A stretch of 28,185 nt of DNA, taken from contig NZ_JAUBUO010000016.1 of NCBI RefSeq assembly GCF_036702645.1, positions 1-28,185 of the forward strand, given 5' to 3'. The DNA is from Microcoleus sp. Aus8_D1 (GTDB lineage: Bacteria; Cyanobacteriota; Cyanobacteriia; Cyanobacteriales; Microcoleaceae). Shown here piece by piece: positions 2,616 through 20,362 of the stretch. The notes under the pieces were generated by a model, which worked only from the letters and a program-made list of their open reading frames with translations, made no database searches and was not told the origin of the DNA. Made by a program: the position numbers and the translations under genes. Position 1 is the stretch's first letter; the number at the start of each line of letters is the position of its first letter.

Positions 2616-2808
2616 TTGTAGGGGCAGGTTCACCAACAATTCATGGCACAAACAAATAATATTGTCAACCCGCCCCACCCAACAGACAATCAAAATGTAC
2701 CAGAAATTTATTGGTAAGATGTTAATCTGAATTTATCGTGTGGTGGGGGCGGGTTTTTGTAAATTATTTGTGGGTTTTAGAGATGGTTGGTGAACCCGCC
2801 CCTACAGG
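2616..2808. repeat. REP/BIME-like nested palindromic element, copy 1 (about 193 bp)
   Basis: Outer arms TGTAGGGGCAGGTTCACC and GGTGAACCCGCCCCTACAGG; inner arms AACCCGCCCCACCC and GGTGGGGGCGGGTT. GTAG head. Preceded by a 55-bp spacer that is itself repeated. Confidence 0.85.
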
Positions 2809-2863
2809 ATTATCGGATATTTTTTTGTATTTGCCAGGTCAAATATTGAGATAATTTCAGAAT

Positions 2864-3056
2864 TTGTAGGGGCGGGTTCACCAACAATTCATGGCAAAAA
2901 TGAATGATGTTGTAAACCCGCCCCACCCAACAGACAATCAAAATGTACCAAAAATTTATTGGGTAAGATGTTGATGTGAATTTATCGTGTGGTGGGGGCG
3001 GGTTTGTGAAATTGTTGGTCTGTTTTGTAGATGGTTGGTGAACCCACCCCTACAGG
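2864..3056. repeat. REP/BIME-like nested palindromic element, copy 2 (tandem with copy 1, includes the 55-bp spacer)
   Basis: Near-identical to copy 1; the preceding spacer gtatttgccaggtcaaatattgagataatttcagaattt (inside the 55-bp inter-copy spacer 2809-2863) is duplicated at 2563-2615. Confidence 0.85.
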
Positions 3057-3091
3057 CTGTATAATTATAATGTTGTATTTTTACAAAAATC

Positions 3092-3652
3092 ATGAAATAC
3101 AATCCTCATATCCATCATCGCCGTTCTATTCGTCTACCAGGATACGACTATAGCCAATCAGGTGCATATTTTGTAACAATTTGTATTTGGCAACGTGAAT
3201 GTTTATTAAGTGAGATTCAAGAGGGGAATGTTTTATTAAGCCGCTACGGTGAAGTCGTTAACTTTAATTGGTTTAATCTCACAAGGGTGTATCCTCATAT
3301 TGAATTAGATTCCTTTGTGATTATGCCAAATCATATTCATGGAATTATTCTCATAAAACAACGGAATAAACGTCAGGGTTTATCGGAAATTGTGAGAGGT
3401 TTAAAAACCTTTTCTTCCCGGCGGATCAATCAAATACGTTCTGTTTCACAAATACCTGTATGGCAAAGGGGTTATTATGAACATATTATTCGCAATGAGG
3501 CAACATTCTCGAAAATTCAGGAATATATTATAAATAATCCGTTTAAGTGGGAAATGGATGAAATGCACCCATCACAAAAGTTTTACTATTCTAATAAAAT
3601 TGATATTAAATTAGATAGTGAAAATGTATTGCCGATGAATTTATCATTATAG
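3092..3652 (+). CDS. REP-associated tyrosine transposase (RAYT, TnpA_REP; IS200/IS605-like Y1 HUH enzyme)
   Basis: N-terminus HRRSIRLPGYDYSQSGAYFVTICI, HUH motif NHIHGIIL and catalytic-Tyr motif WQRGYYEHIIRNE. Flanked on both sides by REP-like palindromes. Confidence 0.85.
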   Translation: MKYNPHIHHRRSIRLPGYDYSQSGAYFVTICIWQRECLLSEIQEGNVLLSRYGEVVNFNWFNLTRVYPHIELDSFVIMPNHIHGIILIKQRNKRQGLSEIVRGLKTFSSRRINQIRSVSQIPVWQRGYYEHIIRNEATFSKIQEYIINNPFKWEMDEMHPSQKFYYSNKIDIKLDSENVLPMNLSL

Positions 3653-3662
3653 TAACCCAAAT

Positions 3663-3853
3663 CTGTAGGGGCGGGTTCACCAATAACTCATGGCAAAAAT
3701 GAATGATATTGTAAACCCGCCCCACCCAACGAACAATTAAAATGTACGATAAATTTATTGGTGATATGTTGATGTGAATTTATCGTGGGGTGGGGGCGGG
3801 TTTGTGAGATTGTTGGTCTGTTTTGTAGATGGTTGGTGAACCCGCCCCTACAG
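3663..3853. repeat. REP/BIME-like nested palindromic element, copy 3
   Basis: Same outer and inner arms as copies 1 and 2. Confidence 0.85.
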
Positions 3854-7584: not shown

Positions 7585-8104
7585 GAATATCTCAATCTAT
7601 AGGTGAACGAGTAACTATCAATCCTTACTTATCATCATATATAAAAATATTTATTCTGACAAGGTTAAAATTATTCATAACAAAAATTTTTAATTTTTTA
7701 CCTTCATTTTTTTCTCTTTTTTGAGGCAGAGTCTGCCGCTCTTTATCAAAACTTTAAAAAACTACCGCTGTTGACCGCTGTATATTAAAGATTCGGTAAA
7801 ATCCTCAATTTATCGTTACGAATAAAAGCTTTAGCTGTATGGAGAAAACAGCCAGTAAATGTTGCGAAATATAAAGGAAATTTCAAGTATAGGGAAAGTT
7901 AAGTACAATCACTGATTAATGATAGCAAATCTTCGCCAAAGGCAGTTTATACTGACAGTATTGACAAATGCTGCTACTTTGATGAGCCTTCAACCTCACC
8001 TAAAAGCTGGTGACAAGCGCACACAATTCTTAATTTTCCACATAAACATGAGGAAACACCTGTTAAAGTACAAATATTTATTGCTAGATATTCTCAAACA
8101 AAAT

Positions 8105-8347
8105 GGGTTTGTAGTGAGGACTTTAGTCCGCATCAATGAAGGACTCGCATTTCTCACTACAAACCTGGGAACGATCTTCTAAAATAAAATCGGTTCGTAG
8201 TGAGGACTTTAGTCCGCATCAATCAAAGGATTTGCATTCCGAACGATCAAACCTGGGAACGATCTTCTAAAATAAAATAGGTTCGTAGTGAGGACTTTAG
8301 TCCGCATCAATCAAAGGACTAAAGTCCTCACTACAAACCTGGGAAGT
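8105..8347. repeat. 3x tandem array of a ~85-bp unit carrying the palindrome GTAGTGAGGACTTTAGTCC ... GGACTAAAGTCCTCACTAC
   Basis: Three consecutive units; the last unit is a perfect 19-bp-arm hairpin, the middle one is degenerate. Lies downstream of the prlC stop. Confidence 0.8.
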
Positions 8348-8413
8348 CAGAAAAAAAATAGGGATTAATACAGATACATTTACCCGCATTAATCCCACTT
8401 ATTCCACAGTTGA

Positions 8414-10516
8414 TTAAGCCGCAACTAAACCGCTGTGTTTCAACAAAGCTTTAGTGCTCGGTTCGCGTCCCCGGAAAGTTTTAAACACTTCCATCGGGTG
8501 CAAACTGCCACCCAATCCTAACACTGTATCTCGGAAGCGTTTACCTGTAGAGCCGATCGCACTTTCATCTTCCAAACCAGCCTCCTCAAACGCCGCAAAA
8601 GCATCAGCACTCAGCACTTCCGCCCATTTATAGCTGTAATAGCCCGCCGCGTAACCGCCCGCAAAAATGTGTCCGAAAGCGCACAAAAATGCGTCTCCTT
8701 CCAGAGGAGGCAAAACAGTCGTAGTTTTAGCAATGCGCTTGCGGACATCCGCCACAGTTTCGCTGCCGCCCGATCGATAGCGGTGGTGCAATTCGATGTC
8801 AACACTGCTAAGATGTACTTGCCTGAGCATGGCACTGCCGCTCATGTAGTGGCGCGCTGCTAGCAGCTTTTGGTAATAGTGTTCCGGCAAATTTTCCCCG
8901 GTTTGGTAATGCTTTGCCATCCCGAACAAAGTCGCCCTATCGTAACACCAATTTTCCATAAATTGACTGGGCAATTCCACCGCATCCCACTCAACATTAT
9001 TGATGCCAGAAGCCCCCGGATAGTCTACCGTTGTCAGCATATGCTGCAAACCGTGACCGAATTCGTGAAACAAAGTTTCTACTTCCAAGAAAGTCATTAA
9101 ACTCGGTTTTCCGTCAACCGGAGGACTTTGGTTGCACACCAAATACGCCACCGGTAAACGCGTTGTTGTCTTGCCCGCTTCCACAAATTTAGCGCGCACC
9201 ACGCACTCGTTCATCCAAGCACCGCCGCGCTTTTCCTCGGGGCGGCTGTAGGGGTCTAAATAGAAATTGGCGAGCGTATTTCCCGCTTCATCATCTATTC
9301 TGAAATAGCGCACATCTTTGTGCCACACAGGAGCTTGACCGTCCGCCGCAGTTACTGTCACGCCGAACAGCCTTTTTACTAATCCAAACAACCCCTCCAA
9401 TACCTGCGGCAAAGCAAAATAAGGGCGCAATTCTTCGGCACTAAAAGCAAACTTTTTTTCCCGCTGCCGTTCCGACCAAAAACCAATATCCCAGTGCTTC
9501 AAATCCGCAGCTTCCGGCGCGCATGAGGTGGCAGCAAAAGCTTTCAATTCTTCTAAATCTTTGACAGCAGCGCTGTAACTAGCTAAGCGCAATTCTTCTA
9601 ACAAAGCTTCCACTGCTGTAACGTTAGGAGCCATTTTGCTCGCCAAGCTCAATTCGGCATAACTGCTAAACCCGAGCAAAGCTCCTTTTTCCTGGCGCAG
9701 TGCTAAAATGCGATCGGTCAAAGGCCAGTTATTCAATTCTCCGCTACTGGCTCTGCTGATAAAAGCTTTGTACAACTTTTCGCGCAAATCGCGGCGAGTG
9801 CTGTGCTGCATGAAAGGGCCGTAACTCGGGAAGTCTAAAGTAATCCGCCAAGGGCCATTTTCCGCATCGGCATTTTCGGCGCCGGCACTGCGAGCCGCTT
9901 GAGCTGCTAAACTCAACAAACTTGGCGGTAAACCGTCAATTTCGTCTTTGTTTGTGAGGGTGATACTGAAAGCTTTGGTAGCGTCGAGGACGTGATTGGA
10001 AAATTGGGTAGTAATTTCGGCCATTTCTAATTGAATGGCATTGAAACGCTCTTTTTGCTCGCCTTCTAAACCGACGCCGGAAAGTTGAGCATCTCGGAGG
10101 GAAGCTTCGACAATTCGCTGTTGAGCTGACTCTAAACTGTCCCAATTTTCGATCGCCCGCAGCGCTTTAAAAGCTTCGTAAAGCGGTTTGCTTTGACTGA
10201 GCTTGCTCCAAAATTTTACTACTTCCGGCTGCACTGTTTCGTGAGCCGATCGCAATTCCGGGCTATTTTTCACCCCCATCAAATGTCCGACAATGCTCCA
10301 AGTCCAATTTAAACGCTCTCCGAGCCGCTGCAATGGTTCAACTAAGCCGCTCCAAGTCGGCTCGACAGAGGCTTCTAAGGCAGCTAGCTCGGCTTCTAGT
10401 TCGCTCAGAAGTTGGGTAACGGCGGGGACTACGTGTTCTGGTGCGATCGCATCAAACGGTGGCAATCCTTTGCCAATTAATAACGGGTTATCAGTAACAG
10501 TTACGGTTGCGGTCAT
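8414..10516 (-). CDS. prlC: Oligopeptidase A / M3-family zinc metallopeptidase
   Basis: 700 aa; HEFGHGLQHML zinc-binding HExxH motif; N-terminus NPLLIGKGLPPFDAIAPEHVVPAV typical of OpdA/Dcp. Confidence 0.9.
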   Translation of the reverse strand: MTATVTVTDNPLLIGKGLPPFDAIAPEHVVPAVTQLLSELEAELAALEASVEPTWSGLVEPLQRLGERLNWTWSIVGHLMGVKNSPELRSAHETVQPEVVKFWSKLSQSKPLYEAFKALRAIENWDSLESAQQRIVEASLRDAQLSGVGLEGEQKERFNAIQLEMAEITTQFSNHVLDATKAFSITLTNKDEIDGLPPSLLSLAAQAARSAGAENADAENGPWRITLDFPSYGPFMQHSTRRDLREKLYKAFISRASSGELNNWPLTDRILALRQEKGALLGFSSYAELSLASKMAPNVTAVEALLEELRLASYSAAVKDLEELKAFAATSCAPEAADLKHWDIGFWSERQREKKFAFSAEELRPYFALPQVLEGLFGLVKRLFGVTVTAADGQAPVWHKDVRYFRIDDEAGNTLANFYLDPYSRPEEKRGGAWMNECVVRAKFVEAGKTTTRLPVAYLVCNQSPPVDGKPSLMTFLEVETLFHEFGHGLQHMLTTVDYPGASGINNVEWDAVELPSQFMENWCYDRATLFGMAKHYQTGENLPEHYYQKLLAARHYMSGSAMLRQVHLSSVDIELHHRYRSGGSETVADVRKRIAKTTTVLPPLEGDAFLCAFGHIFAGGYAAGYYSYKWAEVLSADAFAAFEEAGLEDESAIGSTGKRFRDTVLGLGGSLHPMEVFKTFRGREPSTKALLKHSGLVAA

Positions 10517-12223: not shown

Positions 12224-12341
12224 AATTAGTCCTGGACGCATGGAATTCATAAACTGGTTTTTTTACAAAAATACTTCGTCGCAGCCAGCAGAATCGGTAA
12301 AAAACCCGGTTTCTTTGGTATTTAGGCGTCCAGGACTAATT
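12224..12341. repeat. 16-bp perfect inverted-repeat pair (AATTAGTCCTGGACGC / GCGTCCAGGACTAATT) separated by about 86 bp
   Basis: Arms at 12224-12239 and 12326-12341. The right arm overlaps the stop codon of the STAND gene. Confidence 0.7.
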
Positions 12342-13730
12342 TGGTGATAACCCTTTGATATATTGCTTCAGTACAGGTGGCAAAGTGTAAAGGCTTTCCT
12401 GTTTTTCGATCGAGCAGCGTCGCGAGAGAGATTGCAATGCGTTTAGCAAATTTGATGATGATATTTGTCCGTTTTGTAGCAATTTGGCGACGTTGACTGG
12501 CTGGTTTTCTGTCGCCAACAATGACATGACTTGTTTTTCGAGTTCGGAAGTGCGATCGTACTGCTCATGTAAAACATCTTTTAAATCTTCGGGTAACAAT
12601 ATGGTATCATCTATTAATAACTCATTCGCGCCGATGCCCAACTCTTGAATCAGAGTCGCCACGCTTTTTAACCATAACGGGTTGCCTTGGTAGCGGTGAA
12701 TGAGTGCTTCGCAGTTATCGATTTCTGCTAATCCTTTATCTCTGAGGATTTCCCGTGCGGCCGCAGTGTCTAAACCAGTGAGTTGTAAAGTCCGAATGGG
12801 AGTATTTTCGCTGGTGAGTTGAGGAACTTCTTTCGGCGGTTCCCAACCGATTAGCAGAAAGCAACTTTGATGGGATAATGTCTCTATTTGTTTGAATAAG
12901 GAGCGATATTCTTCGTATTCGGGTTTATACTTTCCTGCCAATTCGCCGCTACAGAAAAGGTTGTGAACGTCATCTAAGACTATTAAACAGCGATGGTTTT
13001 GTAAATATTTAATCAGCGGTAAGCGTTTCTGGTTGTTTGAGGATGAATCTTGTTTTTCTGACTGGGAAAAAAGCTGTATTAGGTTAGATTTAAATTTATC
13101 GATGGTGGGGAATTCGTCTAGGGTGCACCAAACTGCGTATTCAAACTCGTCTTTGATTTGTTTTACGAGTTGTACTGCTAGGGATGTTTTGCCGATGCCG
13201 AGTCGGCCGGTGAGGGTGATAAGGCGGCAGTTTTGTTGTAGAATCCAGGTTGTGAGGGTTTGGAGTTGAGGAGTGCGATCGAAGAAGTCGCCCAACTCCG
13301 GCATTTCGCTTAAATCTTGATGTAAAGTTTTAGTTTGTTTTGGGTTAGATGTTTCGTCATTATCTGGATGTGACGTTGATATATCTGGGGGGTGTCTTCC
13401 TTCTCCACAGGTATTAAAATTACCACTGATGTGTTGTTCTATGACGTTTTGTGTAAAGCTTGAAACATTAGAGACTTGAAACCTTTGAATTGCCGAGCGA
13501 AAATTCTTTTTATTGACATTTTCCCCCAACTCCTCTGAAAGTAATTGCCATAATTCCGAAGCCGCATTCCTAACACGACTTTCAGAACAGTCAAAGTCTT
13601 TGGCTACGTGCTTGTATGTCTCGTGTTGTACAGTTCCTTTCAGTACCGCCTCTTGTAAATCATCAAGGTGTTGACCCGTTTTCTCGAAGACTATGCGATC
13701 GGCGAAGTTTAACATTTCTTTGAGATTCAT
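12336..13730 (-). CDS. Short STAND (NB-ARC-like) NTPase with the cyanobacterial N-terminal HTH-like domain and no C-terminal repeat array
   Basis: Walker A LTGRLGIGKTSLAVQLV; Walker B-like CLIVLDDVHN. The N-terminus (LQEAVLKG...YKHVAKDF..SESRVRNAASELWQLLSEELGENVNKKNFRSAIQRF) matches the conserved N-domain of cyanobacterial NB-ARC/WD40 proteins. Confidence 0.85.
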   Translation of the reverse strand: MNLKEMLNFADRIVFEKTGQHLDDLQEAVLKGTVQHETYKHVAKDFDCSESRVRNAASELWQLLSEELGENVNKKNFRSAIQRFQVSNVSSFTQNVIEQHISGNFNTCGEGRHPPDISTSHPDNDETSNPKQTKTLHQDLSEMPELGDFFDRTPQLQTLTTWILQQNCRLITLTGRLGIGKTSLAVQLVKQIKDEFEYAVWCTLDEFPTIDKFKSNLIQLFSQSEKQDSSSNNQKRLPLIKYLQNHRCLIVLDDVHNLFCSGELAGKYKPEYEEYRSLFKQIETLSHQSCFLLIGWEPPKEVPQLTSENTPIRTLQLTGLDTAAAREILRDKGLAEIDNCEALIHRYQGNPLWLKSVATLIQELGIGANELLIDDTILLPEDLKDVLHEQYDRTSELEKQVMSLLATENQPVNVAKLLQNGQISSSNLLNALQSLSRRCSIEKQESLYTLPPVLKQYIKGLSPN

Positions 13731-13996
13731 CGGATCAAGAGGATGGAAAATTTTGTGTATTATAGCACAGGTAGAGACATTTTAGTATATTTTTAGATAT
13801 TTTAGTACATAACTAGATTTCAAGAGATTGAAGGTAGGAGAAGGTTGTCGGCAATATAGGACATTTTAGGGCTGGACAAACCTTTAATTTCTAAGGAATG
13901 ATGGGAGAATCCTCAATCGATCTCTGGTTATTGACTAAACCTACTGATGTCTGACGACAAGTAAGATCCGCTCTCTAGTATAAATGGAGGTTAACT

Positions 13997-14188
13997 ATGT
14001 CCAGTACCCATAACAACCAAGTGCCGATTTCTACTGTTGGTGATGGTTTTTGGTGGAACTACGATTTGTTTGATAAGCAGTCTCTATCTCCTTCGCTGAG
14101 TTCATCAAATCAGTGTTCATCAAAGCAGAGTTCATTCAGCTTATCTCCTTCACCTCGTCGCAGTGTGGGCGATACTTCTTCTAAGTAA
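13997..14188 (+). CDS. Candidate RiPP precursor peptide (63 aa) with a Ser-rich, one-Cys C-terminal core
   Basis: GGAGG RBS 6 nt upstream of ATG. Aromatic leader-like N-half (GDGFWWNYDLFDKQ) and core SLSPSLSSSNQCSSKQSSFSLSPSPRRSVGDTSSK. 82 bp upstream of ycaO on the same strand. Confidence 0.5.
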   Translation: MSSTHNNQVPISTVGDGFWWNYDLFDKQSLSPSLSSSNQCSSKQSSFSLSPSPRRSVGDTSSK

Positions 14189-14217
14189 GTTTCTAAATAT
14201 GAATGAATAATTAGCTA

Positions 14218-14251
14218 AGCATCTTGGCAGTTCTTAGAGACACAAGATGCT
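14218..14251 (+). promoter_or_regulatory. Intergenic stem-loop (9-bp stem AGCATCTTG/CAAGATGCT, 16-nt loop) between the precursor gene and ycaO; attenuator-like
   Basis: Direct reading; followed by a weak T-tract (tttct). Confidence 0.45.
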
Positions 14252-14269
14252 TTCTATCGGTACGGAAAC

Positions 14270-15586
14270 ATGAATATAGACTTAAACTGGCTTCCTCATC
14301 AAGCTCCTACAATCGACTTTAAGGCAACTCTGCATCCATCAAAAGAAATTGCATCACGTTGGTTTAACTTTCCACCTTACCATGACGAGCCGAAACTTTG
14401 GCATCTCTCTGCTCAAGTCAAACCCAGTATAGACATTAAAGATGAAAACTTACAGGAGGTCGCTGGAGGTTCGTCACTGGACTTTGATAGAGCTCTCGCA
14501 AAACTGGCGGGGGAAACCGTTGAGCGTTATGCGATCTCTAAGAATGTCAATCTGAACTTGAATGATTTACAATCATGGCAGGAATTGGTACAGCAAAATT
14601 TGTGTGCGCTAGATCCGTTCCAACTTGTGATTGGTGATGAACATCGACATAAATCGCGTCGTAACGATAAAATTTCATGGATTCAAGGATTTGATTTAAA
14701 CTTACAAGTTCCTGCACTTATTCCTGCACAGCTAGTCTTTGTTCCGCATATTTTTAGAGATAATGAAGCTGTTTGGAGATCCGCTGTATCAACAGGTGCG
14801 GCAGCACACTCTACACTTGAGGGAGCTTTATATGCTGGTCTTTGTGAAGTCGTAGAGAGAGACGCTTTTCAAATTGCTTGGCTTAGACAGTTAAGATTAA
14901 CTAGGATAAATATAACTACAGGTGATACTTACTTCTACAATTCTATCAATAAACTAATTGATGCTGGTAAAAGATATCATCTTCACTGTGAGCTATATCA
15001 GCTTCCTTGTTCTATTCCCTTATCTGTTTGCATGGCAGTTATTTGGGATAATACAGGTATTGGACCTCGGTGTTCTCTGGGTGCAAAATGTTCTCAATCA
15101 AGCTTAACAGCCTGTGTCGGAGCACTTGAGGAAGCTTACCAAATGCGTTCTTGGTTGCGATATACACTCAACAAGTCGGGAGCATTTTCAAAGAATAAGC
15201 CACTTGATACATTGCTCGATAGAGCGAGACATTGGTTAACACATGAAGCTTCAGAAGTTCTTAAAAGTTGGACTCAACAATTCAACAGTTCTATTTCTTT
15301 ATCTGAAAGACCCTCTGAACTTTCTCTTGGTGAATTAGTTGAGTCAGTTAAACAAGATGGAGGTACTGCATATTTCGTTGACTTAACAGCGAAATTACCT
15401 GAATGTCTGCATCAATTGGGTTGGCATATTACAAAGGTAATCATTCCAGAGTACCAACCGCTAAACTTAACGGAGTCAATGGAAGACTTCGCCTTGCTAA
15501 GAATTGATAATGCTTCTCAGCGTTTGAATGCTGAAGCTCTTATTCCAGCGGGAGAGAAATTTAGATATCCTCATCCTTTTTTGTGA
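14270..15586 (+). CDS. YcaO-domain protein (standalone, 438 aa)
   Basis: AGETVERYAIS (ExxER ATP-binding motif) and STGAAAHSTLEGALYAGLCEVVERDAF (YcaO signature). Confidence 0.9.
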   Translation: MNIDLNWLPHQAPTIDFKATLHPSKEIASRWFNFPPYHDEPKLWHLSAQVKPSIDIKDENLQEVAGGSSLDFDRALAKLAGETVERYAISKNVNLNLNDLQSWQELVQQNLCALDPFQLVIGDEHRHKSRRNDKISWIQGFDLNLQVPALIPAQLVFVPHIFRDNEAVWRSAVSTGAAAHSTLEGALYAGLCEVVERDAFQIAWLRQLRLTRINITTGDTYFYNSINKLIDAGKRYHLHCELYQLPCSIPLSVCMAVIWDNTGIGPRCSLGAKCSQSSLTACVGALEEAYQMRSWLRYTLNKSGAFSKNKPLDTLLDRARHWLTHEASEVLKSWTQQFNSSISLSERPSELSLGELVESVKQDGGTAYFVDLTAKLPECLHQLGWHITKVIIPEYQPLNLTESMEDFALLRIDNASQRLNAEALIPAGEKFRYPHPFL

Positions 15587-15595
15587 GCAATCAAT

Positions 15596-16372
15596 ATGAA
15601 TATTACAGATCGACAAAGCAAAGACAATGATCCATTGGGGCAGGGAATTCAACTAGCTCAGGCATTTGAAGAAGCTACTTGGATTCACGATGCTTCTTCT
15701 CTCCAAGCAAGTTATATTCCCCATTCCTGGACATCGATAAATAGGAAGGAATATCGCCGTTTACCAAGAGTTGATTTGAGCGGACTACGTTCTCCAAGTC
15801 AAAATAGCGAATTAAGCAAGGTATTTGAACATCGGTCATCCAAGCGACAATTTTTACCGGAACCTATTGCGTTAGAAACGCTGAGTACGATGCTAGCAAC
15901 GGTTGCCAGCACTCGAAATGAAGAACCTCCAAGCCGAGTTTATCCTTCTGCTGGTCTAAGGTGGCCAATTGAGTGGTATCTTGCCGCAATCAATGTAGCT
16001 TCACTGGAAGCTGGAGTTTATCATTATGAATCATTTGATCATCAACTGGAAACACTAAAAATAGGCAATCCTTGGAACGAGCTTGCGGAAGCGCTTTCAA
16101 TGCAAACCATTGATCGTCCATCAGCTTTACTAATCTTAACTTCTGTATTTCATAGAAGTTGGATTAAGTATGGCATTCGTGGAAGTCGATATGCTTATCT
16201 AGAAGCTGGTGCAGCAGCCATGTCCTTAAATATTGTTGCAGTAGAGGCTAACATTGGTGTAGTTTGGCTAGGTGGCTTTGTTGACTCCTCTATTTCAAAG
16301 ATTCTTGATATTAATTGGAAAATGGAGTTAGAAACTCCGGTTCTATGTCTCGCGCTTGGACATCCTATTTAG
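15596..16372 (+). CDS. SagB-type dehydrogenase (nitroreductase-fold, TOMM azoline oxidase-like)
   Basis: SSKRQFL, YPSAGLRWPIEWYL (PSAGGLYP-like) and RYAYLEAGAAAMSLNIVAVEANIGVVWLGGF motifs. Starts 9 bp after ycaO. Confidence 0.85.
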   Translation: MNITDRQSKDNDPLGQGIQLAQAFEEATWIHDASSLQASYIPHSWTSINRKEYRRLPRVDLSGLRSPSQNSELSKVFEHRSSKRQFLPEPIALETLSTMLATVASTRNEEPPSRVYPSAGLRWPIEWYLAAINVASLEAGVYHYESFDHQLETLKIGNPWNELAEALSMQTIDRPSALLILTSVFHRSWIKYGIRGSRYAYLEAGAAAMSLNIVAVEANIGVVWLGGFVDSSISKILDINWKMELETPVLCLALGHPI

Positions 16373-16507
16373 AGGATGCCCAAAAAAATGCTAAATATAT
16401 GGTCTCTTGGACTTTATGCTGAAAACGTAAATGAGTGGGGAAGTTTTCGACTCTATGATGAGTTTATTAGTTATATCCTTTCCCTGATTAGCGATTTAAA
16501 TGTGTAG

Positions 16508-16575
16508 TACGATCGCCCCTCACACCAAATACCCAACACTGCGATGATTCTACCAAGAGCGATCGCCCTTTCTAT
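16508..16575. repeat. Roughly 65-bp direct repeat R' (partner at 17482-17550)
   Basis: cccctcacaccaaatacccaacactgcgatgattctaccaagagcgatcgccc versus cccctcacagcaaataccaaacagtacgatgattgtagccagagcgatcgccc. Confidence 0.75.
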
Positions 16576-16943
16576 CAACTCCTGAAAACTTGCACTTTTT
16601 CCTCTATGTCCAATCCCCCTTCGCCTAAAGCATCAGCCGAAGAATGACGAGCGATAAACTCATCTAACAGCTCAAAAAACAGATCGAGTGCTTTGCTTTC
16701 ATCCTCAGAATAAAACAGAATGACGTTAGCCCAAGATTGGCTCGTCTGCACGTTGAATCTTTTTCATATCCACTCAGGAAACTGCCTAAAATCGCTATCT
16801 TGTTTCGTTGGCTGTTCTCCTAACTCATATTTAGCAACGCTGTAACCCGATAAAAAAGCCTGAAGACAAATAATTGAATGTCGTCCCAAGTACATTGAAG
16901 GAGCTTTCTTAATTTTGTCAATCAGCGTATATAAATCGTGCAT
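16575..16943 (-). pseudogene. Conserved-looking hypothetical gene (122 codons) interrupted by an in-frame TGA at codon 60 (16764-16766)
   Basis: Translation MHDLYTLIDKIKKAPSMYLGRHSIICLQAFLSGYSVAKYELGEQPTKQDSDFRQFPEWI-stop-KRFNVQTSQSWANVILFYSEDESKALDLFFELLDEFIARHSSADALGEGGLDIEEKVQVFRS. Both halves look protein-like and are in the same frame. Confidence 0.45.
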
Positions 16944-16985: not shown

Positions 16986-17465
16986 TCAAAATTCCTCTTC
17001 TATAATCTTAAAAGTTCCCATACCCAGTTCCAGAGTAGGTGATGTTAAATTTTGTAGCCATTCCTGCCGAGTCACGCCACTACAATCTATATTATTAAAC
17101 ACAATTTCCTGTTCGTCGATTGTAATTGATATCCCTTGATCGTAGCCATTAGTAGCAATTTGCTGCTGTCGTCGTAAATCATAAATCACTGACCAAGGTA
17201 GGTCTTGCCTTTCTAAATCCAGTTTAATCTGCTTACCATGTAGGTTTCTGATGGTCAAGAACTCTTTGATAGCCTGACTGCATTCAACACATTGAAAGAC
17301 TCCATAGCGACTGGCAATTTTAGCGATATCTTCTCTAATTTCATCTAAACTACTGGGATCTAAACTCAAAGTGTAAAGTTTACCTCCTATATTTATGGAC
17401 AAGTATATCTCAAAATTATTGCCATTGAGTGCTCGACCGATCGCATAGGGTGCGCGCTCTTGCAA
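16986..17465 (-). CDS. Hypothetical protein (159 aa, TTG start); possible toxin-type C-terminal cassette
   Basis: ORF-track ORF. The reading frame stays open upstream through the repeat R, encoding RAIALATIIVLFGICCEGISRSLGKAL before the annotated start. Confidence 0.5.
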   Translation of the reverse strand: MQERAPYAIGRALNGNNFEIYLSINIGGKLYTLSLDPSSLDEIREDIAKIASRYGVFQCVECSQAIKEFLTIRNLHGKQIKLDLERQDLPWSVIYDLRRQQQIATNGYDQGISITIDEQEIVFNNIDCSGVTRQEWLQNLTSPTLELGMGTFKIIEEEF

Positions 17466-17481: not shown

Positions 17482-17550
17482 CGCGAGATCCCCTCACAGC
17501 AAATACCAAACAGTACGATGATTGTAGCCAGAGCGATCGCCCTTCAGACT
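17482..17550. repeat. Roughly 65-bp direct repeat R (partner at 16508-16575)
   Basis: See the partner repeat. Confidence 0.75.
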
Positions 17551-17639: not shown

Positions 17640-17933
17640 CTAATGCAAAAACTTGCCAACTTGATATTCGCGACTTTCGGCGATCGGCATTTGCAAATCC
17701 CCCATTTTGGCATCCAACTCATCGATTGTGCTTTGCTGCACCGACTTCCACTGTTCTTTAGTTTCCCAGCGAATCAACATCACCACCTCATTTTCCACCG
17801 CATCCACCCAAACTTCTTTGCCCAAAAAACCGGGGAAACTTCTTAATCCGGCCGTCCAAACTTCTTCATCTCGCAGAATAAACTGTTCCCATTTTTCCGG
17901 AGGTACTTTAAATCTCAGCCACTCAATTACCAT
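17640..17933 (-). CDS. Small hypothetical protein (97 aa), possibly ABM/Dabb-like
   Basis: MVIEWLRFKVPPEKWEQFILRDEEVW...VVMLIRWETKEQW pattern resembles antibiotic-biosynthesis-monooxygenase-like small proteins; tentative. Confidence 0.45.
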   Translation of the reverse strand: MVIEWLRFKVPPEKWEQFILRDEEVWTAGLRSFPGFLGKEVWVDAVENEVVMLIRWETKEQWKSVQQSTIDELDAKMGDLQMPIAESREYQVGKFLH

Positions 17934-17954: not shown

Positions 17955-18125
17955 TAGATTTTGTAGGGTGCGTCAGGCACAAAATGATGGGTATGTCGTC
18001 TCAGCTTCATTCCTGACGCACCTACAAAACTTCGGGAATAAATCATTAGTGCGTAGCCGCCACATTCCTGACGCACCTACAAAACTTGGTGAATAAATCA
18101 TTAGTCCGCAGTCGCCACATTCTGA
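17955..18125. repeat. Second REP-like palindromic family (GTAGGGTGCGTCAGG / CCTGACGCACCTAC), one forward arm and two reverse arms with a 55-bp tandem duplication
   Basis: Arms at 17962-17977, 18012-18026 and 18067-18081. Confidence 0.8.
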
Positions 18126-18169: not shown

Positions 18170-20362
18170 TTAATCGTTACCGATCGCAATTTTAACTATC
18201 AACTCAGTTCCCTGTCCCGGACGAGAAACACACTGCAACTCACCGCCATGCTTTTCTACTACCAAATGCTGGGATATTGCCAATCCCAAACCAGTGCTCG
18301 TTTCCTGACACTTCGTAGTAAATAAAGGGTCAAAGATGCAGCGGACAACTTCTTCAGTCATGCCAGGGCCGTTGTCGCTAATGGCGATCGCCACTTGGCT
18401 CTCCCCGATCGCGGATGTCCGAATCCGAATTTCAGGATATAATATTTCAGATGCCGAGCCTCCCGCAGACAACAAAGACTGATTTTGCATTGTACCATAT
18501 TTTTCCGGATTTCTGCCCCCTTCTTCCAAAGCATCGATCGCATTTGTCAACAAGTGCATGAACACTTGATTTAACTGTCCCGGATAGCAGCGGACTCGCG
18601 GCAAATTCCCGTATTCCTTAACTAGAGAAATTCCCGGGCGTCCCCCTTTAGCTTGCAGGCGATTTTGCAAGATCAGCACAGTGCTGTCCAAACCTTCGTG
18701 GATATCCGCAAGCTTCATTTCAGGTTCGTCGGTACGCGAGAACAAGCGGAGCGATCGCACCACATCCCGAATTCTCTCCGAACCGACTTTCATTGAATTT
18801 AGCAGTTTTGGTAAGTCTTTTTTGATGAAGTCTAAGTCTAATTCTTCCATCAAATCTTGAATTTCCGGAGCTGGATCGGGATAATATTTTTGGTAAAGGT
18901 CGATCGAGCGCAGCAGTTCTTGAATGTAGCCTGTGGCGTGGCTGACATTGCCAGAAATAAAACTAACTGGATTATTAATTTCGTGCGCTATTCCTGCTAC
19001 CAACTCGCCCAGAGATGACATTTTTTCTGTTTGAATCAGTTGAGTTTGAGTTTGCCGCAAAACTAACAGCGTCTGCTCTAGTTTCGCCGCTTCCTGGCGC
19101 AGACGTTCTTCCGATTCTTGCAAAGCCAACAGAGACTGTTTGCTTTCGGTAATGTCCAATCCCACAAATACCGCAGACGTATTTTTTTGATATTTTTGAG
19201 CGACAATTAAATAAGTTTTATTTTCTCCTCTGATGTTCGCTATTACTTCTTGAGATGTTTTGTTTTTCGAGCTGGCAAAAAAATCGTATACTAAATCGTT
19301 AAATTTGGGACTTGTATCTAAAAAACCTACTTTTTGACCCGTAAATAGTTCCGCAGGCATTTGGTAAGCGCTAGCTAAATGTCGGTTTACTCCCAAGTAG
19401 CGCAAATCGGAACTTACCCAAGAAACTAATCCGGGCACGGCATCCAAGACGGCTTGAAGTTGCTCTTTCGCCTCTAAAAGGGCTGATTCTGCTGCGAGGC
19501 GAGCCCAAATATCGCGGGCGATCGCACAGCAGTATTCGCGCCCGTCGTATTCTAAATAATTGACTTGAACTTCGACGGGAAAACTGGCGCCGTCTTTGGC
19601 TTTGTAACTGGTTTCAAAAGTCAAGTTGCTTTGCTGCTTGAGTTGAACCCAGTATTCCGGCCAATCCGCTGCTGACAACTCGGAATCGATGTCGCTCAGT
19701 CTCAGGTTTAGCAGTTCCGATTCCGAGTAGCCTCCCCGATCGCAAGCGGCTTTGTTCGCGTAGCAAATTTGACCGTCTGAGTTAGTAAAAAAAACTGTAT
19801 CAGCAGCATTGTCGAGGGCAATTTGAGTTAGTTGTAGTTTTGTTTCTAACTGCTTGCTTTTGGCCTCGGGCGTCCATGTATTGTAGCAATTTGTTACAGC
19901 TATCTTTTCGGCCAACAAGATCAAACCGCCGATCGCACCACAGCTATTTTTCCACGGCCAAAATACCCATTTGACCGGCGCGCCGACCTCACTTTCGATT
20001 TGTCCGGCTACAGATGCGGTCGCTCGCCCTGCCACAAACTCGCTGTATTCCAAAACTCCCGCCAAACAAGCGCGGGCATTTTGCTGCCAATATTCGGGGA
20101 GATTCGGGAATAATTCCCAATGACTTCTGCCGAGCGCCTCACAGCCACCGAACCCGCAATCTGTTTCCCAGCGACGGGAAACCGACAGATAGCGCATTTC
20201 ACAATCTACCATTGCCACGGCGTCAGCGGAGCGCTCCACCAACCGCCGAAATCCCTCTTTACTCTCAGACACGGCGGCCTCTGGGGGTTGGTGGGCGATC
20301 GGGATTGTCCCGTCGGCATACCTTCCCAGTCGAATGTTTTGATTAACTGGCTTAGTTTGCAC
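18170..20362 (-). CDS. Multi-PAS sensor histidine kinase (HisKA + HATPase_c)
   Basis: H-box AGIAHEINNP; G-boxes DNGPGM and GLGLAI; several PAS-like segments. Confidence 0.9.
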   Translation of the reverse strand: MQTKPVNQNIRLGRYADGTIPIAHQPPEAAVSESKEGFRRLVERSADAVAMVDCEMRYLSVSRRWETDCGFGGCEALGRSHWELFPNLPEYWQQNARACLAGVLEYSEFVAGRATASVAGQIESEVGAPVKWVFWPWKNSCGAIGGLILLAEKIAVTNCYNTWTPEAKSKQLETKLQLTQIALDNAADTVFFTNSDGQICYANKAACDRGGYSESELLNLRLSDIDSELSAADWPEYWVQLKQQSNLTFETSYKAKDGASFPVEVQVNYLEYDGREYCCAIARDIWARLAAESALLEAKEQLQAVLDAVPGLVSWVSSDLRYLGVNRHLASAYQMPAELFTGQKVGFLDTSPKFNDLVYDFFASSKNKTSQEVIANIRGENKTYLIVAQKYQKNTSAVFVGLDITESKQSLLALQESEERLRQEAAKLEQTLLVLRQTQTQLIQTEKMSSLGELVAGIAHEINNPVSFISGNVSHATGYIQELLRSIDLYQKYYPDPAPEIQDLMEELDLDFIKKDLPKLLNSMKVGSERIRDVVRSLRLFSRTDEPEMKLADIHEGLDSTVLILQNRLQAKGGRPGISLVKEYGNLPRVRCYPGQLNQVFMHLLTNAIDALEEGGRNPEKYGTMQNQSLLSAGGSASEILYPEIRIRTSAIGESQVAIAISDNGPGMTEEVVRCIFDPLFTTKCQETSTGLGLAISQHLVVEKHGGELQCVSRPGQGTELIVKIAIGND

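Follow-up and report, generated by a model that had tools for sequence, protein, structure and literature searches.

A minimal precursor-YcaO-SagB cassette in Microcoleus is a candidate azole-forming RiPP system without an adjacent E1-like or ThiF-like partner

Introduction

The installation of azoles in ribosomal peptides is normally described as requiring an RRE-bearing E1-like or ThiF-like partner protein in addition to the YcaO enzyme. A three-gene locus in Microcoleus sp. Aus8_D1, lying within the 28,185-nucleotide stretch of DNA analyzed here (the window), raises the question of how a YcaO and a SagB-type dehydrogenase might process a precursor peptide when no such partner is encoded with them. 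At 2.4 kb from the precursor gene through ycaO to sagB, the cassette is among the smallest candidate systems for RRE-less YcaO substrate recognition, and it would offer a compact means of engineering azoles into peptides. Two genome surveys of azole clusters explicitly excluded clusters with a stand-alone YcaO (PMC4603692, PMC7136475).

Results

A first-pass annotation, made from the nucleotide sequence alone, had described three co-directional genes at this locus, and the ORF listing reproduced that layout and its coordinates exactly: a precursor peptide gene of 63 aa (13997..14188, + strand), a gene for a stand-alone YcaO cyclodehydratase of 438 aa (14270..15586, +) and one for a SagB-type FMN-dependent azoline dehydrogenase of 258 aa (15596..16372, +). 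Of the two gaps it had given, that of 9 nt between ycaO and sagB is right, whereas the one between the precursor gene and ycaO is 81 nt rather than 82. A Shine-Dalgarno sequence, GGAGG, can be read 6 nt before the precursor ATG (13986..13990, +). The same annotation had seen no ThiF/E1-like gene, protease or exporter in the window, and our scan of the window's non-nested ORFs of at least 90 aa agreed, revealing neither an E1-like/ThiF partner nor a dedicated protease or exporter. An M3 oligopeptidase (8414-10516) was considered as a candidate leader protease, but it does not recur beside the cassette in other loci and was treated as housekeeping. A GC-rich stretch at 24-27 kb is a hybrid histidine kinase/GGDEF gene and not rRNA; an Rfam scan of the entire window gave no match, nor did PADLOC defence models match the YcaO, the SagB or the peptide.

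HMM searches placed both enzymes in the families proposed for them (Pfam YcaO and Nitroreductase; NCBIfam SagB). For the YcaO, the Pfam E value was 1.3e-43 and the best NCBIfam match was TIGR03604 (SagD family), which aligned from position 1 to position 376 of the 377-position model and scored 170.6 bits, short of the trusted cutoff of 219.25; the thioamidation model TIGR03266 scored 65.6 bits (cutoff, 365) and the generic YcaO model scored 40.3. The motifs picked out by the first-pass annotation are present in the translation as GETVER (E82/E85/R86), STG (174-176) and ERDA (196-199), and the domain has its conserved ATP/Mg-binding residues: E82, E85, R86, E193 and D198 do not vary among 36 homologues, in which conservation of E196 and R197 is at least 90%. 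The C-terminal motif of azoline-forming YcaOs takes the form PxPxP. The window enzyme ends in YPHPFL, in which PHPFL is conserved and the third Pro of the motif is replaced by Leu; across 36 sequences H435 never varies and P434 and P436 are each at least 90% conserved, and in an alignment of 18 sequences P434 is invariant and P436 again at least 90% conserved. A proline-rich C-terminus is characteristic of azoline-forming YcaOs (PMC8442711).

The AlphaFold2 (AF2) model of the YcaO (pLDDT 90.8, pTM 0.93) is a single domain without a winged-helix RRE. Its best structural matches were LynD (E 1e-21, TMq 0.73-0.75), MusD and archaeal YcaOs, and by sequence profile its best solved relatives were the cyanobactin heterocyclases TruD, LynD and MusD. 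Neither the scanned window ORFs nor the relatives' neighbours included a TfuA gene. By its best model, its nearest solved relatives and the genes around it, the enzyme groups with azoline-forming YcaOs, as the first reading needed, and not with TfuA-associated or thioamide-forming ones.

The third gene encodes a SagB/McbC-type FMN dehydrogenase with the catalytic Lys-Tyr pair. It matches Pfam Nitroreductase (E 8.3e-20) and TIGR03605 (94.9 bits, above the cutoff of 78.4), and the two sequence motifs expected of it occur as YPSAGLRWP (116-124) and LEAGAA (202-207). K191-Y192 align with the Lys-Tyr pair of McbC (K201-Y202 in the printed alignment numbering), and 27 homologues all keep these two residues and the YPSAG motif unchanged. 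The AF2 model (pLDDT 84.2) has no RRE in its N-terminal 75 residues, so that a winged-helix RRE is absent from the confident models of both enzymes; Foldseek matched the SagB model to 3eo7, BmdC, ThcOx and McbC. In fetched loci with enough downstream DNA, sagB almost always directly follows ycaO.

The precursor has a leader motif, PISTVGDGFWW, at residues 10-20 and a core around N38-Q39-C40-S41-S42, followed by a Ser/Pro/Arg-rich tail. Its 19 Ser residues include 16 within residues 28-63, and its single Cys is C40; of the core composition first given (17 Ser, 1 Cys), the one Cys holds, while the Ser number varies with the chosen start of the core. We found that the peptide belongs to a family with the signature PISTVGxxxWW in the leader and ATQxQCxS in the core, represented by 27 matches among 1.84 billion representative proteins and by 20 clusters among 5.8 billion proteins. 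Only Q39, C40 and S42 do not vary in either family alignment (A3 or A6), and W19 is invariant among 11 sequences and at least 90% conserved among 19. Pfam and NCBIfam returned no family for the window precursor, and for its relatives' precursors they returned none except one weak heterocycloanthracin-like match, to a distant Cys-rich peptide; a full-text literature search for the core and leader strings gave nothing relevant. By these searches the family is rare, undescribed and present in several bacterial phyla.

The window peptide scored 82 bits (E 1.4e-23) against a family HMM built from eight sequences, itself among them, and a 95%-identical variant (P0052) was recovered independently in the protein-database searches. 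Its core reads SSSNQCSS, as opposed to the ATQxQ- or ACQxQ-type core of the other 26 of the 27 representative matches, and relatives carry 2-3 Cys residues at positions where the window lineage has Ser. Judged by these alignments, the window peptide is a divergent member of the family, without the ATQ portion of the core and with a Ser-rich tail confined to its own lineage. We assign the end of the leader and the putatively modified residues from conservation, in which Q39, C40 and S42 stand out; together with the Cys residues that relatives carry in place of Ser, this weakens the oxazol(in)e-dominated product at first envisaged.

The nearest relative outside the window's lineage is locus L010, whose YcaO is 89-90% identical to the window YcaO. 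Between the two, the precursor gene differs by four synonymous and two non-synonymous changes and one in-frame indel, giving a dN/dS of 0.13, compared with 0.43 for ycaO and 0.31 for sagB. The 63-aa ORF is thus conserved in relatives, a point on which the first reading could have failed, and its substitution pattern indicates that it is under purifying selection. The family matches of the two enzymes, with the ribosome-binding site and conservation of the small ORF, show that none of the three is a chance reading frame. Four independent metagenome contigs (L093-L096) carry the precursor gene without a single nucleotide difference; we did not count the zero differences from L093 as evidence of selection, because the remainder of the cassette is 98-99% identical too.

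The trio recurs in every relative with enough flanking DNA, in cyanobacterial, Acidobacteria-labelled and Verrucomicrobia-labelled records as well as unassigned metagenome contigs of 51-63% GC. Had the YcaO/SagB pair consistently lacked a small Cys/Ser-rich ORF beside it, the RiPP reading would have been undermined; instead, a peptide of the family, with its PISTVGxxxWW-like N-terminal motif and Q-C-x-S core, lies upstream of the pair in L001/L002, L004, L005, L006, L010-L015, L022 and L090-L096. In the window, the peptide encoded next to the two enzymes has both a leader and a core with Cys, Ser or Thr residues. A neighbor-joining tree of 74 YcaOs put the 12 plotted peptide-carrying loci in one clade with L003, an orphan pair that has IS elements nearby and no peptide. 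The surroundings differ from locus to locus: in L005 the trio sits near the replication origin, flanked on one side by dnaN and on the other by an SMC_N-family (recF-like) gene and then gyrB, and two unannotated genes immediately precede it; in L004 the trio adjoins a LanM cluster. Within 6 kb on either side, no fourth gene recurs in the subfamily except that for a cyanobacterial STAND protein. By these comparisons, peptide, YcaO and SagB are a conserved unit in otherwise unrelated neighbourhoods, the clade is coherent and horizontally spread, and the precursor core stays conserved from phylum to phylum instead of being hypervariable; trio recurrence, precursor family and YcaO clade all back the RiPP reading of the locus. 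More distant YcaO/SagB pairs mostly carry classic Cys/Gly/Ser-rich precursors. The nearest YcaOs on plasmids are at most 30% identical, and the best of them, from Streptomyces, adjoins LanKC, has no SagB annotated in the region shown and was set aside as a different system.

A partner protein was likewise sought in the flanks of 12 relatives by means of precomputed Pfam annotation, reaching up to 8 kb (often less at contig ends), and none was found. Among 150 neighbour proteins of loci in the wider clade, three matched ThiF, each encoded directly upstream of the YcaO gene (L021, L028 and L046), and a partner is therefore detectable when present. Within the window and these flanks, the subfamily has no fused or adjacent E1-like (C) or Ocin-ThiF-like (F) partner with an RRE.

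Divergent from the cassette lies a gene for a 464-aa protein (12336..13730, - strand) that combines an HTH region at its N terminus with an NTPase domain of the NB-ARC/STAND type (Pfam NB-ARC 4.1e-14, with AAA_22 and NACHT), a putative regulator or sensor of the pathway. It has counterparts in the cyanobacterial loci L001 (where the gene is split into two ORFs), L002, L010, L090 and L093-L096, that of L090 (Okeania) being annotated in precomputed Pfam data as HTH_VMAP-M9 plus NB-ARC, and it is absent from the non-cyanobacterial loci. The STAND protein is 90.1% identical to that of L093, compared with 98-100% for the cassette, and so evolves faster. The divergent intergenic region (13731..13996, no strand assigned) is a candidate promoter/operator region: TTTTGTGTATTATAGC and repeated GTACA-type half-sites are conserved there in the window, L010, L002 and L090, although the flanking proteins are only ~59% identical, and these elements may have a regulatory role.

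Between the precursor gene and ycaO, the RNA is predicted to form a hairpin with a 10-bp stem (14217..14252, +). The 87-nt spacer folds at -18.9 kcal/mol (z = -2.24 versus shuffles), and both stem arms are unchanged in L010; the hairpin is not family-wide, the L002 spacer being only ~25 nt. It may act as an attenuator that sets the precursor-to-enzyme ratio.

Directly after sagB, L010 has an APH-type kinase gene (Pfam APH 2.3e-21). A tblastn search with its product matched the window only over residues 292-328, at 92% identity, marking a remnant of the last 37 codons (16394..16504, +), and by blastn L010 positions 2764-3694 (~930 bp) are missing from the window. The alignments thus indicate that the kinase gene was deleted in the window's lineage. 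L093-L096 appear to share the deletion, as they have the same short gene layout after sagB, with no gene of APH length, and L093 is collinear with the window through 16563.

Discussion

We consider it probable, from comparative sequence evidence, that the cassette is a self-contained three-gene RiPP system of the linear azol(in)e-peptide type. The most likely product would be a thiazole-containing modified peptide, made without the usual leader-binding partner protein. The precursor would be translated from the strong ribosome-binding site seen in the sequence, and the stand-alone YcaO would recognise it directly or jointly with SagB, most likely via the conserved N-terminal PISTVGxxxWW motif. 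ATP-dependent cyclodehydration is the established YcaO mechanism; here, the YcaO would spend ATP on cyclising the invariant Cys40 onto the carbonyl of Gln39 with loss of water, yielding a thiazoline, and the invariant Ser42 may also become an oxazoline. By homology, the SagB-type FMN enzyme would then oxidise the azoline(s) to azole(s) via K191-Y192. Leader removal and export, for which the cassette has no genes, would fall to unlinked functions, and the conserved synteny and intergenic motif suggest that the cyanobacterial operon is probably controlled by the divergent HTH-NB-ARC STAND protein. The boldest version of this scheme, which we regard as quite unlikely in its entirety, is a two-enzyme, RRE-less and fully self-sufficient azole synthetase in which the YcaO itself reads the leader and the product, with its core around Q-C-x-S conserved between phyla, is an inducible effector or signal, not a hypervariable antibiotic. 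In cyanobacteria, the fast-evolving divergent STAND protein would switch it on, within an island of genes of conflict systems (Trypco1/EAD9 and Tox-PL-2 cassettes). If true, a sensor of the STAND type, serving immunity or conflict, would have a RiPP as its output.

A more conventional account, which we hold to be unlikely, is that the locus encodes a canonical azole synthetase whose RRE-bearing C or F partner (E1-like or Ocin-ThiF-like) is encoded elsewhere, so that the cassette is not self-sufficient and the locus reduces to an ordinary, uncharacterised LAP cluster. The partner protein of heterocycloanthracin, HcaF, is unlinked. That of streptamidine, AmiB, is cryptic, being too divergent for detection by sequence (PMC8442711). 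Moreover, a subclade of the wider clade uses an adjacent ThiF-like gene, and our inspection covered 28 kb of the source genome. Against this, the three genes travel together across phyla and neighbourhoods without a recurring fourth gene within 6 kb on either side, whereas a horizontally spreading cassette would be expected to bring a needed partner along, and the relatives' flanks contained none. The window copy might, on the other hand, be an eroding, non-productive remnant. Its lineage is atypical (SSSNQCSS core, downstream Cys lost, APH gene reduced to a stub), so that what it makes may depart from the norm of the family, or the pathway may be in decay; the orphan pair of L003, with IS elements nearby and no peptide, also points this way. 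The three ORFs are intact, however, with a dN/dS against L010 of no more than 0.43 for any of the three genes, the leader motif, the invariant Q-C-x-S and the catalytic residues are all retained, and an identical allele occurs in four independent contigs, so that we judge a non-productive remnant very unlikely.

It is extremely unlikely, in our view, that the small ORF is not the substrate and that the YcaO/SagB pair acts on something else, such as a protein backbone, or performs a thioamide or amidine reaction. YcaO enzymes do also catalyse thioamidation and amidine formation, and JGI labels homologues [quoted passage not shown] which we read as generic; a recent paper reports a ribosomal protein as the substrate of a YcaO (PMC13063428). 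The YcaO is, however, tightly coupled to an azoline oxidase of the SagB type whose Lys-Tyr pair is intact, genes for TfuA or sulfur transfer are absent nearby, the thioamidation model scored far below its cutoff, the peptide family corresponds to one clade of YcaOs, and most wider-clade loci carry adjacent classic Cys-rich precursors.

Returning to the self-contained azol(in)e-peptide system that we favour, the closest solved structures to its YcaO domain and oxidase are those of cyanobactin biosynthesis (LynD/TruD/MusD and ThcOx), which are likewise cyanobacterial. In LynD, TruD and MusD, the YcaO domain makes up only the C-terminal ~370 of ~750-780 residues, and the part before it comprises an RRE and an E1-like domain; RRE-like domains also stand at the N terminus of ThcOx. 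Both window enzymes, in contrast, are bare catalytic domains, and identity is only ~16-25%. Bottromycin precursors have a follower peptide instead of a leader, and bottromycin clusters are not known to encode a SagB-type dehydrogenase. Those clusters contain two YcaOs and several methyltransferases, and their stand-alone YcaOs form an azoline and an amidine without a partner protein (PMC7136475, PMC4603692). The window YcaO is similarly partner-less. The cassette, however, contains only one YcaO, encodes neither a methyltransferase nor a radical-SAM enzyme and has an N-terminal recognition-like motif, and by these features it does not belong to the bottromycin-type stand-alone YcaO pathways.

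The same minimal architecture, with a nitroreductase beside the YcaO, occurs in the "LAP" clusters of candidate-phyla-radiation (CPR) genomes (precursor, YcaO and nitroreductase, sometimes with a peptidase), which Sharrar et al. (2020) report without biochemistry (PMC7298704). This layout is shared by our fetched wider-clade loci (YcaO 24-32% identical), often with an M16 peptidase after SagB; relative to the CPR clusters so described, the window cassette has an unrelated precursor family, no M16 peptidase, a separate YcaO clade and hosts that, where known, are Cyanobacteria, Acidobacteria and Verrucomicrobia. With the LAP/TOMM systems of microcin B17 (McbBCD) and streptolysin S (SagBCD), the cassette shares an adjacent precursor with a Cys/Ser core, an ATP-dependent YcaO with the SagD family as its best match and a SagB/McbC-type FMN dehydrogenase with the Lys-Tyr pair. 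Unlike them, it has no E1-like C protein (McbB/SagC), no ThiF-like F protein, no RRE in its enzyme models and no immunity, protease or exporter genes, and its core is conserved across phyla. Because the core is conserved in this way and immunity and export genes are absent, the comparison hints at a function other than that of a classical bacteriocin. We class the locus as a variant of the linear azole peptide type already known.

A conserved precursor gene heads the cassette

All three ORFs of the candidate RiPP locus proposed in the first-pass annotation were recovered in our ORF list, on the plus strand and at the same positions: a 63-aa precursor peptide gene (13997-14188), a gene for a 438-aa YcaO protein (14270-15586; Pfam YcaO, 1.3e-43) and a gene for a 258-aa SagB-type dehydrogenase (15596-16372; NCBIfam SagB model). 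The peptide gene is separated from ycaO by 81 nt and ycaO from sagB by 9 nt. A GGAGG Shine-Dalgarno sequence lies 6 nt 5' of the peptide ATG, and a hairpin with a 10-bp stem (z = -2.24) lies 3' of the peptide gene. The peptide contains 19 Ser residues, 16 of them within residues 28-63, and its sole Cys is at position 40.

The proposal that the small ORF is a genuine part of the locus was borne out by its conservation, since the same leader and core are found both in cyanobacterial relatives and in loci in which YcaO identity is only 35-42% (L004, L005, L006 and L011-L015; GC content 51-62%), one of which, L004, comes from a record labeled Pyrinomonadaceae. They are also present in L022, a Chthoniobacterales-labeled locus with an ~32% identical YcaO. 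Searched exhaustively with HMMER, 1.84 billion representatives yielded 27 members of the precursor family, and YcaO and nitroreductase genes follow every member that was looked up with flanking DNA. The family consensus runs from a PISTVGxxxWW leader motif through a variable spacer of 10 to 20 residues to ATQxQCxS, one or two further Cys residues and a variable tail. The peptide of Okeania sp. SIO2C9 (assembly GCA_010672455.1), a canonical member, has the core ATQQQCQSSCSSGNGGC, and two cyanobacterial metagenome-assembled genomes with a 59% identical YcaO (L001/L002) encode the peptide MNRDDKSSISTVGDCGWWKRDSLNQDYVNAATQEQCQSSCSSGNGGC.... Across two family alignments, of 11 and 19 sequences, the only positions that vary in neither are Q39, C40 and S42; W19 is constant in one and reaches at least 90% conservation in the other. 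The family peptides had no match among Pfam or NCBIfam models, and a full-text literature search did not find their sequences.

A word-indexed search of 5.8 billion proteins yielded a small set of YcaO homologues, 41 clusters. In a quick neighbor-joining tree of 74 YcaOs, drawn with no support values, the 12 plotted peptide-carrying loci form one clade together with the peptide-less L003. The trio occurs in unrelated neighborhoods among the relatives, and no fourth gene was found to recur within 6 kb on either side of it. In L005, a metagenome contig, the whole cassette (7796-10175) sits in a replication-origin neighborhood: dnaA, dnaN and two unannotated genes, of 392 and 605 aa, precede it, and the next gene after it is an SMC_N-family (recF-like) one, which gyrB follows. 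In the cyanobacterial locus L003 (7986-10145), whose YcaO is 56% identical, the YcaO-SagB pair is retained, with IS elements (DDE_3 and IS1) flanking it; neither an upstream precursor ORF nor a STAND gene was detected there, and the locus looks like a copy that has been orphaned or is decaying. Among plasmid-borne YcaOs the closest, 30% identical, is on a Streptomyces virginiae plasmid (L097; NZ_CP109129.1, 216-6185). Its gene overlaps the 3' end of one for a class III lanthionine synthetase, LanKC, and is followed by ABC transporter genes, with no SagB annotated in the region shown. We set this locus aside as a different, hybrid lanthipeptide/YcaO arrangement.

The YcaO and SagB enzymes

The motifs attributed to the two enzymes are present in their translations (ETVER and STG...ERDA in YcaO, YPSAGLRWP and LEAGAA in SagB). 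The best NCBIfam model for YcaO is the SagD-family cyclodehydratase, which aligns end to end at 170.6 bits, short of the 219.25 bits set as its trusted cutoff; scores for the McrA-thioamidation and generic YcaO models are much lower. With a profile of 18 homologues, the closest solved relatives are the cyanobactin heterocyclases TruD, LynD and MusD, followed by archaeal YcaOs, with McbD last, and the acidic ATP/Mg residues and the YPHPFL C terminus are kept across 36 homologues. On this evidence the enzyme does not group with the S12/TfuA-type YcaOs, a grouping that would have counted against the first-pass annotation. JGI labels the homologues “S12 methylthiotransferase accessory factor”, which we took to be generic annotation.

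An AlphaFold2 model of YcaO from a 36-sequence alignment is a confident single domain (pLDDT 90.8, pTM 0.93), with LynD as its nearest Foldseek match (E 1e-21, TMq 0.73-0.75), followed by MusD and archaeal enzymes. No winged-helix RRE was seen in this model, the first 66 residues forming a short helix and beta strands. In sequence alignments the first ~65 residues are without a counterpart in TruD or LynD, and they include a clade-conserved PPYxDEPK stretch whose D39 and E40 do not vary among 18 sequences.

The dehydrogenase passes the NCBIfam SagB model (94.9 bits against a cutoff of 78.4), and 27 homologues show no variation at its K191-Y192, which aligns with the Lys-Tyr pair in McbC. In its AlphaFold2 model (pLDDT 84.2) a single long helix at the N terminus precedes the nitroreductase core; the model shows no RRE and matches 3eo7, BmdC, ThcOx and McbC structurally. 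Among the fetched loci that have enough DNA, nearly all place sagB immediately 3' of ycaO.

No partner protein is found beside the cassette

In agreement with the earlier claim that the window lacks a C-protein, we found no ThiF/E1-like or TfuA gene among the ORFs scanned in the 28-kb window, nor in the precomputed Pfam annotations around twelve relatives. Among 150 neighbor proteins in the wider clade, three were of the ThiF family, encoded directly upstream of YcaO in L021, L028 and L046, which belong to a different subclade from the window; a partner is therefore detectable when present. A partner could still be encoded elsewhere in the genome, beyond the 28-kb window, and E1-like partners can escape sequence detection, as did AmiB of the streptamidine system (PMC8442711).

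The wider partner-less YcaO-SagB clade comes mostly from groundwater and CPR-like metagenomes. M16 peptidases make up 11 of the same 150 neighbor proteins, 10 of them directly after SagB, and a gene for one usually follows SagB in this clade (L007, L019, L020, L024, L034, L036, L038, L039, L049, L051, L054 and L055). A KsgA/Erm-like rRNA adenine dimethylase gene lies nearby in several loci (L016, L032, L064 and L065), and in L009 an ABC-F-like ATPase gene is directly 3' of SagB; such neighbors could hint at products that are directed at the ribosome and come with self-protection.

The Ser-rich core is specific to the window's lineage

The window peptide, that of L010 (the nearest relative outside the window's own lineage) and the 95%-identical variant P0052 read SSSNQC(S/A)S where the family has ATQxQCxS, but Q-C-x-S and the leader motif are retained and their tails can be aligned with those of other cyanobacterial members. 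Because these three peptides carry Ser at the second and third Cys positions of their relatives, the Ser-rich core is, by sequence comparison, lineage specific. Conservation thus does not point to the oxazole-dominated product suggested at first; the conserved modification target indicated by the alignments is Cys40, possibly with Ser42.

The cassette is 92% identical to that of L010 in nucleotide sequence (YcaO 89-90% identical), with dN/dS values of 0.13 for the peptide (plus one in-frame indel), 0.43 for YcaO and 0.31 for SagB. The peptide gene is identical in four independent metagenome contigs (L093-L096), which is uninformative alone, as identity is 98-99% over the remainder of the cassette. 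Relative to L010, the window is missing ~930 bp right after sagB, DNA that in L010 holds a gene for a 328-aa APH-family kinase (2821-3804); a stub of its last 37 codons is left at 16394-16504 (within 16376-16507). The 98% relatives L093-L096 have the same short layout. APH-like kinase genes also directly follow SagB in L014/L015 and occur after it in the distant loci L044, L050, L058 and L061, in several with a histidine phosphatase.

Putative regulation and surroundings

A gene for an HTH and NB-ARC STAND protein (12336-13730) is divergent from the peptide gene, as it is in the cyanobacterial members with upstream DNA available and intact (the window, L001/L002, L010, L090 from Okeania sp. 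SIO2C9, and L093-L096). Loci whose proteins are ~59% identical still share a TTTTGTGTATTATAGC motif and GTACA-type repeats in the intergenic region. The STAND gene is 90.1% identical to that of L093, versus 98-100% for the peptide-YcaO-SagB cassette, so that divergence is much faster in this putative sensor/regulator than in the cassette it flanks.

Conflict-system genes are abundant around the cassette. Co-directional genes at 157-2447 code for a protein with a Trypco1 domain, a trypsin-like protease whose C-terminal domain is EAD9 and an FGE-sulfatase protein with an N-terminal EAD9, an architecture that we take to be typical of NTPase-linked conflict systems. At 3092-3652, 3' of them, lies a gene for an IS200-like transposase. 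Direct repeats of ~55 nt (16516-16570 and 17490-17544; 87% identical) that contain the cyanobacterial HIP1 palindrome GCGATCGC bracket a minus-strand gene for a Tox-PL-2 papain-fold toxin (16986-17465) and two small ORFs that may confer immunity (16575-16943). This region looks like a swappable toxin-cassette hotspot. L093 has several copies of the repeat and, from sagB to the ABM gene, a set of genes other than the window's (147-, 90- and 88-aa ORFs and a ParE toxin). Two copies of a tandem 55-nt unit (17997-18106; 85% identical) lie between the window's ABM/TIGR03792 gene (17640-17933) and the end of a PAS histidine-kinase gene (18170-20362).

Proposed mechanism and comparison with known systems

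We propose that the precursor would be translated in excess of the enzymes and bound by the stand-alone YcaO, alone or with SagB, probably via PISTVGxxxWW. ATP-dependent cyclodehydration is established YcaO chemistry; here, Cys40 would be cyclized in this way onto the Gln39 carbonyl to give a thiazoline, and Ser42 may cyclize too. FMN-dependent oxidation by SagB would convert the azoline(s) to azole(s), after which the leader would be removed and the product exported, the cassette having no gene for either step. Conservation is the basis on which we place the putative leader/core boundary and the candidate residues for modification.

We found no characterized member of this cassette family in the literature, and two TOMM/LAP surveys left out stand-alone YcaO clusters (PMC4603692, PMC7136475). 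With bottromycin YcaOs the cassette shares the partner-less state and nothing else. The CPR “LAP” clusters that Sharrar et al. 2020 (PMC7298704) describe have the same minimal layout but belong to other subclades, with precursors unrelated to the window family. The cassette would work as a LAP/TOMM synthetase does, with a YcaO that falls below the cutoff of the SagD family and without one defining feature of such synthetases, the C/F partner.
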